This document shows, in pieces, positions 33,200-64,000 of a DNA stretch of 64,000 nt (within the stretch, counting starts at the first letter, position 1; every line of letters starts with the position of its first letter). This DNA comes from a virus: positions 1-64,000 of the IMG/VR virus record IMGVR_UViG_3300037502_002391. One strand, 5' to 3'. The position numbers were made by a program, and so were the translations under genes. The notes below the pieces were generated by a model, which was not told where the DNA came from, did not search any database, and saw only the letters and a list, made by a program, of their open reading frames with translations.

Positions 33200-35386
33200 T
33201 TAGAAATCCAAACTTATATTATATTGTTGTGTACCTTCTCTTAATTTAGGTTCATTAACTTTAGATATAACCATAAGTTCTTTGTTTGAATTGTAAAGTC
33301 CAATTTCTGTTATATACTTAGATCCACTTGAATAGGTTGGGTTTGTGGACGTTTTAAATTGTGTATCAACCAAATTGATAGCATACCTCATATCATATAT
33401 TGTTGCCACAATACCTGTTTGAATATTACCATAGAAGAAATATTCATCACCAAAGTTTAGTTTTGTTGGTTCATCTTGACCTGGCAAATCAATAAAATTA
33501 TTTAAGTTGTATGTTGTTGCTCCAGTATAATTTGATTCAGTAATAACAAATGTTGTTTTTGTCAATGCTGAAGCTGGAATATAACCATTTATCTTTTTTG
33601 ATTCAATTTGGCTTGTAAAATCAATAATTTTCCAATTATCTGGTGTTGGCAATGTGCCTGTGTTTGTCCTTTGTGTTACAATCTTAAATTGATTTGCTGA
33701 AAACCCAGATAAACTATTATCAACAAATAAGAATGGAAATTCATCACCAAACTTAACTGCAACATTCTGTGCTGTGCTTGTACATCCTGAATTTGGTCCA
33801 ATAATTTTTTGATAATAATTACAATGTAGTGAATTGGTATAACCTGTTGAATCCAAACGATATGACACCCATAAAGTTTGGCTATCACCTGTTAAAACAC
33901 CAACATCATCAGAGACATCAGCATCAAATAAATTTGGTGTTATAAGACTAACTTCTGGTGCTGGTAATGTCCAATTTCTATTTGACTTATAGGATAATGC
34001 TGCAATGATTTCATCATCATCAATAACAACAATCTGGTTATCAGGAAATACTCTACCAACTCTATTTACTTTTCCTTTGCTATTTATATTATCATCCCAT
34101 AAATTGAAGAACCTAATCCCAGGTTGATTCATATCCTGGTTCTTTGTTGATTTTATAAAATATGGAATACATATGCCTTCTTTGTTTGGTGGATCCACAT
34201 AGAAAGTTTGACCAATTGTTCCACCTGATTTTTTATGCCACATCAATGTTGGAATTCTTAATTTAAAATCCCTTGCATTGTATCCTGAAATATTTGGGTT
34301 ACTTGCACTATATGGATTCATTGCAAACTTCTCTCCATATACATTATCTATAGATTGATTTGTATAATGAATAATAGCAATTGCTTTTTGTTCTTTTGAT
34401 GGAACAACAATTTTATTTAATCTTGAATCATAATAATAAACATAACCATCAACATCATCTATTGTTTGCCCAGAAATAGAATAAAGATATTCCTTTGTTC
34501 CAAGATATGATTGTGATCCATATTTTGTATAATCCTCAAATGTTGTTGTTCCTGTGACTCCAGCCACAGTCTGTGACCAAGGTATATTCATATTCCATAT
34601 TCTTGTATCTTGTGTTGCAGATGTGTCACATATGCTCTCATAATTAAAAACATCATTTGACCAGTTTGGATTTGGTGTTACACTATCATATAATGCTGTC
34701 ATCCCTGATGGATATATGATACACCTTGCCAACTCACTCCCACTTGTTTTTGCTGAATATACCGGAAGATTTCTATCCAACCCAATCGTATAACTTCCAC
34801 TTGCTCCTGATGTGGATGATTCAATCTTATATATAAGATTGGGAAATGAATTTCTTATACTTCCACAATCACCAATCCCATCATATATAATAGAAACAAA
34901 ATCACCAACTTTTGGTACTCCTGCTGTTGCTGAACAACTATTTGCAGACATCACCAAACTTGTCTGACCTGTGATTCCAGACATAATTGCAACATAATTT
35001 GATGAAACTGTATATGCTGAACTTGTTTGTGCTGACCATATTGTTGCTCCACTAACAAATAAACCCTTATCTGCTGCCAAGTTATAAAATTCTTCAACAA
35101 CAGATTCATTGAATGGAATTCCATAAGTTGTTCCACTTGTCCCTGCCAAATAATATGGATACTTTATATTTTGTTTGTTTACATTTAAATTTGAACTATC
35201 ATTGTGAGCACAAAATGCAGGCATTAATATATTATTTGATGCAATACTTAATCCTGAATAATCAATTTCTGAATCCCCAACTTGAAAATATGCTATATTG
35301 AACTGCCCCTTAGATATTGCCCTTCTACCAACATCAGTTATCCTTGTGTTCAATATTCCTGATGTGTTCTTTATTATGTAACCCAT
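33200..35386 (-). CDS. Virion structural protein (tail/baseplate-associated)
   Basis: RITDVGR..I...F.VGDSEIDY at the N-terminus; YITEIGLYN..ELMVISK at the C-terminus (tail-collar-like); rich in [ST]GxT. Confidence 0.7.
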   Translation of the reverse strand: MGYIIKNTSGILNTRITDVGRRAISKGQFNIAYFQVGDSEIDYSGLSIASNNILMPAFCAHNDSSNLNVNKQNIKYPYYLAGTSGTTYGIPFNESVVEEFYNLAADKGLFVSGATIWSAQTSSAYTVSSNYVAIMSGITGQTSLVMSANSCSATAGVPKVGDFVSIIYDGIGDCGSIRNSFPNLIYKIESSTSGASGSYTIGLDRNLPVYSAKTSGSELARCIIYPSGMTALYDSVTPNPNWSNDVFNYESICDTSATQDTRIWNMNIPWSQTVAGVTGTTTFEDYTKYGSQSYLGTKEYLYSISGQTIDDVDGYVYYYDSRLNKIVVPSKEQKAIAIIHYTNQSIDNVYGEKFAMNPYSASNPNISGYNARDFKLRIPTLMWHKKSGGTIGQTFYVDPPNKEGICIPYFIKSTKNQDMNQPGIRFFNLWDDNINSKGKVNRVGRVFPDNQIVVIDDDEIIAALSYKSNRNWTLPAPEVSLITPNLFDADVSDDVGVLTGDSQTLWVSYRLDSTGYTNSLHCNYYQKIIGPNSGCTSTAQNVAVKFGDEFPFLFVDNSLSGFSANQFKIVTQRTNTGTLPTPDNWKIIDFTSQIESKKINGYIPASALTKTTFVITESNYTGATTYNLNNFIDLPGQDEPTKLNFGDEYFFYGNIQTGIVATIYDMRYAINLVDTQFKTSTNPTYSSGSKYITEIGLYNSNKELMVISKVNEPKLREGTQQYNISLDF

Positions 35387-35404
35387 TATTCTTTTTATAT
35401 ATAA

Positions 35405-36463
35405 TTATCTGATATGTGAATTTATTCCAGCATTGCTATCAGAATTATATATCAATTCACAACATTTACATGTATTTATTGCTGCTGAAATAATTCTTAT
35501 TAGATTTTTTTGCTCAATTTTAGTAGAACATCCATTTGAATTAGTTTGCAAATCAATATTATTGATTATTGATGTTGTAACACCTGTCAATGTATCCCCA
35601 CTGATTAGTGTTGTGTTATATGTCAAAGCAGTATATGAACCAATATTTAGACTTGGTGAACAATAAGGTCTTGATTCATTTTTTGTTGTAACACTAGTTG
35701 TTGTAGGTGTTAATCCTGAAGTATTTTTATATACTGATATTGTATTTAGTGTTGATGCTGATCCAGGTTGTGATGTTATTGTCTGCAAATTTGCATTCAA
35801 TCCAATTGTTAACACATCCCCTGTTTTAAGTGGGGGATCAATAGTCAAATTCCAGGTTGTTTGAATTGTATCATTGGATATATTTGTTTGTGATATATTC
35901 TCAAGATTTAAAGCATATTGGTTTACTGTGCCATCAAATTCAACTGAAAATATTTTTGATGTTGTTACAGATGTATTTGCTGATGCAATAATATTATAAT
36001 CACCTCCACATAAATTGCTAAATATTGGATTTGGTGTATATGTAACTCCATTATTTATGGAATACAAATATGGCTTTGTTTGCCCCTTGGCATTGGCCAC
36101 AATGATACCATCACAATTTGATGAGCAAGTATTGTTTGTTACGGTTGCATTCAATACAAGGGGTGTATATGCCCCACAAGTGCCTGATGTAACAATCACC
36201 TCATTCTTGGGGATTTTGCCAATCAATTTCCAGTTTGATATTGGAAAATCTGTTTCAGTTTGACTTCTTAATGCTGAATTTGTTGTTCCTGTCCAATTTG
36301 TAATTTCCCAATATGTATTCCCTGAATTCCATTGCATATTCATTGCATTAGCAGAATTCACCCAATATGGTTTTCCATTTGTTGTACCACTATGAACAAA
36401 GTTATAAGGCCCCAATTCATCATTTTCAAAAAAAATACTCAAACATAAATCACTAACTGCCAT
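35405..36463 (-). CDS. Structural protein with an SprB-like repeat
   Basis: TCSSNCDGII...PYLYSINNG...FSNLCGGDY. Confidence 0.65.
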   Translation of the reverse strand: MAVSDLCLSIFFENDELGPYNFVHSGTTNGKPYWVNSANAMNMQWNSGNTYWEITNWTGTTNSALRSQTETDFPISNWKLIGKIPKNEVIVTSGTCGAYTPLVLNATVTNNTCSSNCDGIIVANAKGQTKPYLYSINNGVTYTPNPIFSNLCGGDYNIIASANTSVTTSKIFSVEFDGTVNQYALNLENISQTNISNDTIQTTWNLTIDPPLKTGDVLTIGLNANLQTITSQPGSASTLNTISVYKNTSGLTPTTTSVTTKNESRPYCSPSLNIGSYTALTYNTTLISGDTLTGVTTSIINNIDLQTNSNGCSTKIEQKNLIRIISAAINTCKCCELIYNSDSNAGINSHIR

Positions 36464-63580: not shown

Positions 63581-63583
63581 TTA

Positions 63584-64000
63584 TTAACATATTATACTTA
63601 CATCCACACCAACATTTATGGTTAATAATTTATCAACCGCAATCTCATCAACACAATCCAAATCAATAATTTTAATAAAACCATTATTTGGTGTTTGGTA
63701 ATTTATATCAAAATAATATAAGTTAGGTAATGCACTAAGTAATGCTGATTCCCATTGTGTTGTTGTTGGCACATCATCATTACCTATACCATCATAAAAC
63801 TTAATCTTTGCCACAATATTATTATTCAATATAATTTCACTATACCAACTTGTTAGGACATTATCTGAATTGCAAGTCAAATTAAATTCATCTATTGTTG
63901 AACTTATAGCATTACCCAAAATTGAACTAAAAGGTTCTGCTGGTGTTGCCAATATTGTTATACCATTCTTTATACATATATCACTAAAAATTGGTGATGT
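63584..64000 (-). CDS. Structural protein, 5' end outside the window
   Basis: Frame stays open to the window edge (TSPIFSDICIKNGITILATP...); C-terminus resembles that of 61421-63580 (FY.G....DVPT, LTIN....I.C). Confidence 0.7.
   Translation of the reverse strand, partial: TSPIFSDICIKNGITILATPAEPFSSILGNAISSTIDEFNLTCNSDNVLTSWYSEIILNNNIVAKIKFYDGIGNDDVPTTTQWESALLSALPNLYYFDINYQTPNNGFIKIIDLDCVDEIAVDKLLTINVGVDVSIIC

Follow-up and report, generated by a model that had tools for sequence, protein, structure and literature searches.

The stretch described here is the first 64 kb (hereafter the window) of the 82,255-bp IMG/VR virus record IMGVR_UViG_3300037502_002391, whose source is an uncultured freshwater T4-like giant phage; its CheckV completeness of 27% implies a full genome size near 300 kb. 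Within a block of fibre genes, the window carries a cassette of three genes (genes 1 to 3), the last of which encodes a fusion protein ending in a domain of the TibC/Aah (BAHT) family. We consider that the cassette O-glycosylates the phage's own fibre proteins, a reading to which we give somewhat better than even odds (roughly 0.55). The enzymes are real, and the system that they form is probably a virion glycosylation system. An earlier note on this DNA had proposed TibC-type glycosylation of the phage's own fibres, assisted by extending and methylating enzymes, with Thr/Pro (PT) tracts as the glycan carriers. The first part is favoured by a conserved cassette and by adjacency to Ser-rich collagen-like fibres in about half of the lineages, whereas the part concerning Thr/Pro acceptors failed the co-occurrence test that had been set for it.

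Enzymes encoded in the cassette

BAHT enzymes form a ring dodecamer and transfer heptose to an acceptor Ser (PMC4358343; PDB 4RAP/4RB4); TibC modifies Ser, not Thr (PMC4358343). Judged by its sequence, the C-terminal domain of gene 3 is a true BAHT member and, as such, a predicted protein O-glycosyltransferase. It scores 290.6 bits against the equivalog model TIGR04414 (cut-off 200; model positions 6–374 of 374) and aligns end to end with TibC (PDB 4RAP, residues 19–382, E 8.2e-63). Functional residues for comparison were taken from the TibC structure paper (PMC4358343), and their conservation was assessed in 21 phage orthologues. The catalytic base of TibC, Asp-110, corresponds to D638 of gene 3, which is invariant in these orthologues, and the sugar contacts Thr-226, Lys-230 and Trp-305 correspond to T752, K756 and W827, all of which are kept. 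The four Cys residues of the iron finger (Cys-339, 342, 358 and 370 of TibC; C862, C865, C879 and C891 here) are at least 90% conserved. The beta-hairpin thumb (GFM against GFV) and the N-terminal barrel also align between the two proteins, and the position of TibC Pro-300 is occupied by Ser, as it is in Aah.

The middle 350 amino acids (aa) of gene 3 comprise a nucleotide-diphospho-sugar-transferase domain and a beta-sandwich, modelled with a predicted local distance difference test (pLDDT) score of 80. A PDB profile search with this part gave no match. It is tied at Z ~14 between GT-A glycosyltransferases (GTs) and sugar nucleotidyltransferases (IspD, GlmU), and leans tentatively towards GT-A because the GxGxR loop is not present.

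In gene 1, the GT4 domain (residues 173–301) scores 50.3 bits for Glycos_transf_1 (gathering score 26.4) and the FkbM domain 86.9 bits for TIGR01444 (cut-off 37.7). The domain between them (378–715), modelled from 22 orthologues with a pLDDT of 80, has a GT8-type GT-A fold and a DxD motif (D472-G473-D474) that is invariant across orthologues. Its Foldseek matches are glycogenin, LgtC, UGGT and GlyE, the best being glycogenin and LgtC (E 3e-7 to 5e-6; target template modelling score 0.43–0.57). The likeness to GT8 is at fold level only, and neither the PDB profile search nor the sequence families gave a match for this domain. Full-length orthologues of gene 1, at 58–64% identity, are found in at least 25 viral loci. 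Gene 2, which is conserved in 29 viral loci, gives a weak Pfam signal (Methyltransf_24, 22 bits, under the cut-off); a profile of 10 orthologues matches MycE (3SSM, E 8.7e-38) and TylE (8IA9, E 2.8e-32) over query positions 5–172. The N-terminal tetramerisation domain of MycE is absent from its product. Because of the GT4 domain, the GT8-like fold (glycogenin, UGGT and GlyE are protein-glycan enzymes) and the MycE/TylE-type methyltransferase, the partner enzymes can be regarded as sugar-directed.

The methyltransferase fused to a TibC/Aah-like domain and the GT4, GT-A and FkbM fusion that the earlier note had described are thus borne out, the former by the TIGR04414 and 4RAP matches and the latter by Pfam, NCBIfam and the modelled GT8-type fold with its DGD motif; its O-methyltransferase can now be called, from the MycE/TylE profile matches, specifically one of the sugar type. 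As a side observation on gene 1, all four other populations differ at window positions 41485–41491, in the linker between the GT8-like and FkbM domains, by the loss of one base and the gain of another six bases away. They also have a dense patch of substitutions at 41431–41620, which looks like a locally divergent or recombined segment.

Association with serine-rich fibres

We surveyed 80 viral loci encoding a TibC-like domain, with 10-kb flanks, alongside a control of 80 loci of similar total length retrieved with the Baseplate_J protein of this phage. A protein rich in Ser, Gly and Thr (at least 80% S+G+T over 60 aa, the threshold for a Ser-rich fibre) is encoded in 41 of the 80 TibC loci and in none (0/80) of the control loci. 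When the TibC domains were clustered at 70% identity into 26 de-replicated lineages, the pairing with a Ser-rich fibre was present in 12 of them. These neighbours are tail fibres with Collagen-repeat and Peptidase_S74 domains, consisting of Gly-Ser-Ser or Gly-Thr-Ser triplets and containing up to 37% Ser. The fibre gene comes immediately after the TibC gene in at least 25 loci, and this is the arrangement of the largest group; where the gene order differs, the distance is one or two genes. The direct succession mirrors the rule for BAHT genes, which precede the genes of their autotransporter substrates, for example in tibC-tibA (PMC4358343).

The three-gene cassette is itself conserved in 25–49 viral loci at 50–65% identity. 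In the largest group (loci L006–L039), it belongs to a wider island around the collagen fibre gene, which contains several PF13640 oxygenases, a GDSL hydrolase, a radical SAM enzyme, two GT2 enzymes and an NAD-dependent sugar epimerase/dehydratase. In metagenomes, the TibC-like domain is represented by more than 3300 clusters (90% identity) at E 1e-10 or better, in proteins of 206–658 aa, and many of these clusters are automatically named after the autotransporter enzyme. The cassette of the window recurs in near-identical form in at least seven further freshwater, river and lake studies. Microcystis phage Mel-JY01 has a TibC-like domain as well, at 51% identity; a collagen-like frame at the start of its locus conflicts with the deposited annotation and was not counted as support.

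The association differs for Thr/Pro-rich proteins. Their co-occurrence with the enzyme had been set beforehand as a test of the earlier proposal, and this check fails: a PT-rich neighbour is found in 1 of the 80 TibC loci and in 8 of the 80 control loci. It follows that PT tracts are a trait of a small sub-lineage and not a correlate of the enzyme.

Sister phages and candidate acceptors

Three sister phages, G001, G002 and G003, have Baseplate_J proteins that are 86%, 82% and 77% identical to that of this phage, respectively. G003 is gene-for-gene syntenic with the fibre block. In the slot that corresponds to window positions 39209–45431, between a 73-aa open reading frame (ORF) and a 293-aa ORF, G003 has a single plus-strand gene (34602–37461) for a 907-aa protein with GT4, GT-A and TibC domains. 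Its TibC domain is 49% identical to the one described here, which is closer to those of more distant phages (65%), and this suggests cassette exchange at a fixed site. Beyond the slot, G003 keeps orthologues of the 293-aa ORF, one kelch-like protein, the sulfotransferase and the three oxygenases.

The fibres of these phages vary. In G003, a collagen-like fibre of 1316 aa combines (GTSGSS)n repeats with a kelch propeller and an S74 chaperone, and there is also an 835-aa Gly-Thr-Ser protein. G002 has both an orthologue of the Thr/Pro protein PT2 with PT tracts and a 1694-aa collagen-like fibre, and G001 has PT-type proteins like those of the window and no collagen in its 32 kb. Overall, collagen matches occur in 15 of 18 clade records, most of which are fragments; the present record is the only one of the 18 with two Gly_rich_2 proteins. 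A 174-aa ORF of the window (52913–53437) equals the N-terminus of the 835-aa Gly-Thr-Ser protein of G003 and also matches that of the 1694-aa protein of G002. It looks like a stub remaining after loss or replacement of the collagen part.

In the window, the gene next to gene 3 is the convergent 293-aa ORF and not the acceptor gene that the BAHT rule would place there. Since the canonical Ser-collagen acceptor is absent from the 82-kb record, the acceptor in this phage is left to candidates: a collagen fibre in the remaining 73% of the genome, [S/T]-G-x-T sites, or the Thr-dominated PT tracts. The motif [S/T]-G-x-T occurs 81 times in the fibre-block proteins (33.2 kb to contig position 79.7 kb) and once in 10.4 kaa (thousand aa) of non-structural proteins, and it exceeds the expectation from per-protein shuffles (e.g., 11 observed vs 0.9 expected, 15 vs 2.7). 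Its flanks are unrelated, with a hydrophobic residue usual at position -1. G003 retains it at 48 of 68 sites, compared with ~38% expected, including all 15 sites of the SprB-repeat protein; the 728-aa and 352-aa proteins, the first two at 33200–38977, are also rich in it. It may represent a candidate sequon, or it may have a structural role.

Proposed mechanism

The machinery is taken to be cytoplasmic, where fibres fold, because no transmembrane-grade hydrophobic segment was found in any protein at 33–64 kb. Cytoplasmic protein modification fits this better than O-antigen remodelling, although peripheral enzymes of the lipopolysaccharide (LPS) core are possible. We infer the acceptor, the sugar and each chemical step as follows. 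Glycosylation would take place in the host cytoplasm before or during fibre assembly. Priming would fall to the TibC/Aah domain, which would attach a heptose-like sugar from a host nucleotide-sugar donor to hydroxyl side chains, Ser being the residue that characterised enzymes use. The GT-A-like domain of gene 3, together with the GT4 and GT8-like domains, would lengthen the glycan. The FkbM, MycE/TylE-like and N-terminal methyltransferases would O-methylate the sugars, and the adjoining sulfotransferase and 2-oxoglutarate (2OG) oxygenases may modify the glycan or the fibres further.

The window had been described as lacking genes for nucleotide-sugar synthesis, and for the families searched (NTP_transferase, epimerase/dehydratase, rfaE-II above cut-off and GmhA) none is found in the whole 82-kb record; rfaE-II (above cut-off) and GmhA were likewise not found in three complete relatives. 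The accompanying caution, that a donor other than ADP-heptose may be used, is reasonable, given that a residue needed by TibC, Arg-286, is not conserved and that no heptose-pathway gene was found in the record.

Weighing of the alternatives

Fibre glycosylation is argued from observed domain identities, conserved catalytic residues, a conserved cassette and the adjacency of Ser-collagen fibres elsewhere, and several points weigh against it. In about half of the TibC lineages, no Ser-rich fibre is encoded within 10 kb. The 82-kb record has no collagen-like match, being one of the 3 of 18 clade records without one, so that the strongest comparative argument is not directly applicable here; at the genome level, a test of TibC against collagen is uninformative because collagen is common in the clade with or without a TibC domain on the record, and the records are incomplete. 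By a manual mapping, Arg-286 of TibC, which contacts adenine and is needed for activity (PMC4358343), aligns with Ile in gene 3, and a Lys follows two positions on. The cassette lies on the strand opposite to the fibre genes, and its timing is unreadable from motifs, since a sigma70-like TTGACA-N17-TATATA and one copy of TATAAATA (count 26 vs 18 expected) both stand upstream of 39320. Enzymes of the GT4 and GT8 families typically serve in LPS synthesis, and published work on related phages interprets genes of this kind as modifying the host O-chain (PMC7029224). The glycan on such phages is so far predicted, none having been observed.

Some of these points would also suit the main rival, modification of the host envelope, in which the enzymes would remodel LPS, O-chain, capsule or surface proteins, for example as a superinfection block, and would lie in the fibre zone as a plastic region. 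For pelagimyophages and cyanomyophages, whose tail-fibre hypervariable region contains rfaE and GTs, mostly GT8, this is the published reading (PMC7029224). GT4, GT8 and GT9 are classic LPS families, and the reading is most conceivable for the GT4 and GT8 domains; the lower G+C and opposite orientation of the cassette resemble a moron, and the lineages without a Ser-rich neighbour count in its favour. We nevertheless hold it to be unlikely. TibC/Aah is a family of protein O-glycosyltransferases, not of LPS enzymes, and the domain here has both the equivalog match and the family-specific iron finger. The TibC domain is found time and again directly ahead of Ser-rich fibres, in several gene orders that are unrelated to one another, and the proteins at 33–64 kb, which have no transmembrane segments, include no membrane-embedded Gtr, Wzx, Wzy or WaaL-like partners. 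Envelope modification leaves unexplained an equivalog-level BAHT enzyme that stands repeatedly ahead of Ser-rich fibres, and fibre glycosylation is therefore the best reading.

It is also conceivable, though in our view doubtful, that the glycan forms a mucin-like coat on the Thr/Pro tracts in PT1, in PT2 and in smaller proteins, with Pro possibly hydroxylated by the PF13640-type oxygenase. PT linkers carry glycans in other systems. The two large proteins, 8–15 kb from the cassette, contain ~1000 tract residues, of which 466 are Thr, and a prolyl-hydroxylase-type oxygenase adjoins them. Moreover, PT proteins take the place of the Ser-collagen of relatives in this phage and in G001, so that the tracts could stand in as the acceptor. 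Against this stand the survey, in which PT-rich neighbours tracked the clade, and G002, which has both PT and collagen-type fibres, so that the two are not simple alternatives. PT tracts serve as plain linkers too. TibC modifies Ser (PMC4358343), and the tracts of each PT protein consist of 233 Thr and ~95 Pro with 24–30 Ser. The mucin-like PT coat is the least supported part of the earlier proposal. A more elaborate version is that this lineage swapped Ser-collagen for Thr/Pro stalks, and that the cassette, the prolyl-hydroxylase-type oxygenase and the sulfotransferase build methylated, sulfated O-glycans on Thr or hydroxyproline of the PT tracts and on the [S/T]-G-x-T sequon across a dozen virion proteins, giving a virus-encoded extensin-like or mucin-like glycocalyx; we regard this as an improbable, speculative extension. 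It is very improbable that the transferases and methyltransferases decorate phage bases against restriction. DNA glucosylation does occur in T4-like phages, and nucleic acids can be substrates of 2OG oxygenases (noted in PMC7029224), but none of the domains falls in a known DNA glycosyltransferase family, MycE/TylE-like and FkbM enzymes are sugar or small-molecule O-methyltransferases, and the TibC family acts on proteins. In addition, the cassette is located in the fibre block and not beside nucleotide-metabolism genes.

Genomic setting and neighbouring genes

The part at 1–33 kb is given to replication and repair genes of the T4 type (primase, RuvC-like resolvase, exonuclease and SbcCD-like proteins). 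A single minus-strand block then extends from 33.2 kb as far as 79.7 kb of the contig. Its first genes, for gp25-like and Baseplate_J proteins, lie outside the window (contig 77.4–79.7 kb), and it continues with large proteins without a known family and with SprB-repeat and Fib_succ_major proteins. Among the proteins at 33–64 kb, none has a tail or fibre name in PHROGs, save for 'virion structural protein' (the SprB-repeat protein). Because of the baseplate J and gp25-like genes outside the window and the synteny with sister phages, the tail/fibre placement of the enzymes made in the earlier note holds. In the most likely reading, 33–64 kb is a hypervariable fibre and host-recognition block, and the cassette is an exchangeable, opposite-strand element in a fixed slot. 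The cassette is a plus-strand island at 39320–45431 with a lower G+C of 0.25–0.28. Its junctions are bridged by contigs from independent metagenome studies (36000–40696 in two studies, 42945–46319 in a third), so the arrangement is not an assembly artefact. The features of the region are listed in Table 1.

Table 1. Features of the fibre block in the window, with the basis of each assignment
Feature	Coordinates	Strand	Basis
Four fibre-block proteins of 728, 352, 366 (Fib_succ_major domain) and 468 aa (PT linkers)	33200..38977	-	Syntenic in G003
Gene 1, 906 aa: GT4 (GT-B), GT8-like GT-A and FkbM-family methyltransferase	39320..42040	+	Pfam, NCBIfam, structure model
Gene 2: MycE/TylE-like sugar O-methyltransferase	42031..42699	+	Profile of 10 orthologues against PDB
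Gene 3, 908 aa: class I methyltransferase (1–190), GT-A/nucleotidyltransferase fold with beta-sandwich (~200–545), TibC/Aah (BAHT) domain (543–907)	42705..45431	+	NCBIfam, PDB, model
293-aa protein of a very large viral family; GT9-like fold suspected	45424..46305	-	Homologue search
Three paralogous kelch-like repeat proteins with a shared N-terminal tag	46344..49245	-	phrog_27227 and sequences
PAPS (3'-phosphoadenosine-5'-phosphosulfate)-type sulfotransferase	49278..50108	-	PF13469, PF00685 above cut-off
Three 2OG-Fe(II) oxygenases: two PF13759/TIGR02466-type, one PF13640 prolyl-hydroxylase-type	50092..51904	-	Pfam/NCBIfam
174-aa protein: N-terminal domain of long sister-phage collagen-like fibres	52913..53437	-	83–87% identity over 173 aa
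PT1, 1105 aa: three Thr/Pro tracts (500 aa) between small Cys-containing domains, C-terminal Gly_rich_2	53481..56798	-	Sequence composition, domain match
PT2, 1202 aa: Thr/Pro tracts (502 aa), C-terminal Gly_rich_2	57275..60883	-	Sequence composition, domain match
SprB-repeat virion structural protein with 15 [S/T]-G-x-T motifs	61421..63580	-	Domain match, PHROGs

The 293-aa ORF had been called a GT9-like enzyme, which is not confirmed and stays a lead: it has no Pfam, NCBIfam or PDB-profile match, and PF01075 is absent even at E 10. In an hhalign comparison, it bears a faint co-linear resemblance to the TibC profile (E 0.013, probability 3%), with GLGKN aligned to SLGDN, so that a Lys stands at the position of the catalytic Asp of TibC. 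One atlas neighbour cluster carries PF01075 on 45% of its members. The ORF has 2434 homologues, and marine and freshwater metagenomes contain over 2400 clusters of its family (62% identity or higher), which makes the family far commoner than the TibC cassette; the G003 orthologue is 79% identical and lies at the equivalent position.

The three kelch-like paralogues are probable fibre-tip or receptor-binding modules; in G003 and G002, the repeats of these proteins occur as fused parts of collagen-like fibres with an S74 chaperone at the end. In contigs from four other studies, the kelch region (46000–48700) has a depth of 3–10x, compared with ~30x in its flanks, and one joint from 46701 to 48674 omits ~2 kb. 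The number of these propeller paralogues therefore varies between populations.

The sulfotransferase and the three 2OG-Fe(II) oxygenases reported previously are upheld by domain matches. The sulfotransferase scores 60.6 bits for PF13469 and 48.6 bits for PF00685, has the PAPS loop PRSGST at residues 16–21 and is 83% identical to its G003 orthologue; the oxygenases are 79–85% identical to theirs. PF13640-type oxygenases flank the cassette in 28 related loci too. We infer the roles of these enzymes from the conserved neighbourhood alone. The flanking proteins with hundreds of Thr/Pro repeat residues also proved correct: PT1 and PT2 have about 500 tract residues each, and orthologues of PT2 with PT tracts are found in G001, G002 and G003.

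Outside the fibre block, the large subunit of ribonucleotide reductase has 541 aa in this phage (contig 80114–81736) and 916 aa in G002 (L177–L179, 37093–39840). About 375 aa are inserted after residue 247, and the insertion looks like an intein or a homing endonuclease.

Significance and comparison with known systems

If fibre glycosylation is true, the adhesin-glycosylating BAHT family would extend from a few pathogens to viruses, and a very common gene set of aquatic T4-like and giant phages, now read as host LPS modification, would need reinterpretation. Fibre glycans could affect host recognition, resistance to proteases and grazing, particle stickiness and immune recognition. The intact cassette without the usual Ser-collagen nearby makes the window informative on an acceptor range beyond Gly-Ser-Ser repeats. 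Our literature search, with most subscription journals outside its coverage, found no paper tying a TibC-type enzyme to phage fibres.

The closest known systems are TibC-TibA and Aah-AIDA-I of Escherichia coli, with which the gene 3 domain shares full-length homology, including the N-terminal barrel, the catalytic Asp, the Thr/Lys/Trp contacts, the thumb and the iron finger. The likeness extends to a cytoplasmic enzyme whose gene, in the phage relatives, lies directly upstream of that of a long, repetitive, Ser-rich surface fibre. Unlike TibC and Aah, the domain here shares its polypeptide with a methyltransferase and a GT-A-like domain, has lost Arg-286 and has no autotransporter. Its presumed acceptors are phage fibres, with a collagen triple helix in the relatives, whereas those of the E. 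coli enzymes are the beta-helix passengers of TibA and AIDA-I.

In the serine-rich repeat adhesins of Gram-positive bacteria, a set of GT4-type and GT8-type enzymes builds O-glycans on a long Ser-rich fibre, with priming by GtfA/B. Chlorovirus PBCV-1 offers a further lead, and a lead only, in A064R, where two GT domains and a sugar methyltransferase are fused and a methylated glycan is placed on a virion protein. That system differs in belonging to a eukaryotic virus, in its N-linked capsid glycan and in its unrelated sequences. GlyE of the Streptococcus pneumoniae adhesin system (PDB 5GVV) is a fold-level match to the GT8-like domain of gene 1, while priming here would be of the BAHT type.

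Among phages, mycobacteriophage virions are O-glycosylated by phage-encoded GTs (Freeman et al. 2023, as cited in PMC11652166, PMC12582341). As there, GT genes are placed with structural genes, and that case, in which virion proteins are modified, establishes that phages can glycosylate their own particles. According to the citing papers, the mycobacteriophage systems have other enzyme families, hosts and targets (capsid, tail tube), and those papers describe no TibC-type enzyme and no collagen-like or PT fibre. Pelagimyophages and cyanomyophages (PMC7029224) are T4-like and aquatic, with a plastic region that contains tail fibres, GT8-type GTs, sugar-nucleotide genes and 2OG or Asp/Asn hydroxylases; that study assigns such enzymes to host O-chain modification, without mention of TibC-type enzymes or of a pairing with fibres. 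Phage virion O-glycosylation (in mycobacteriophages) and BAHT enzymes for autotransporters are thus already established. To these the window adds an exception, a cassette without a collagen acceptor nearby that stands beside PT-type fibres, a sulfotransferase and three oxygenases.

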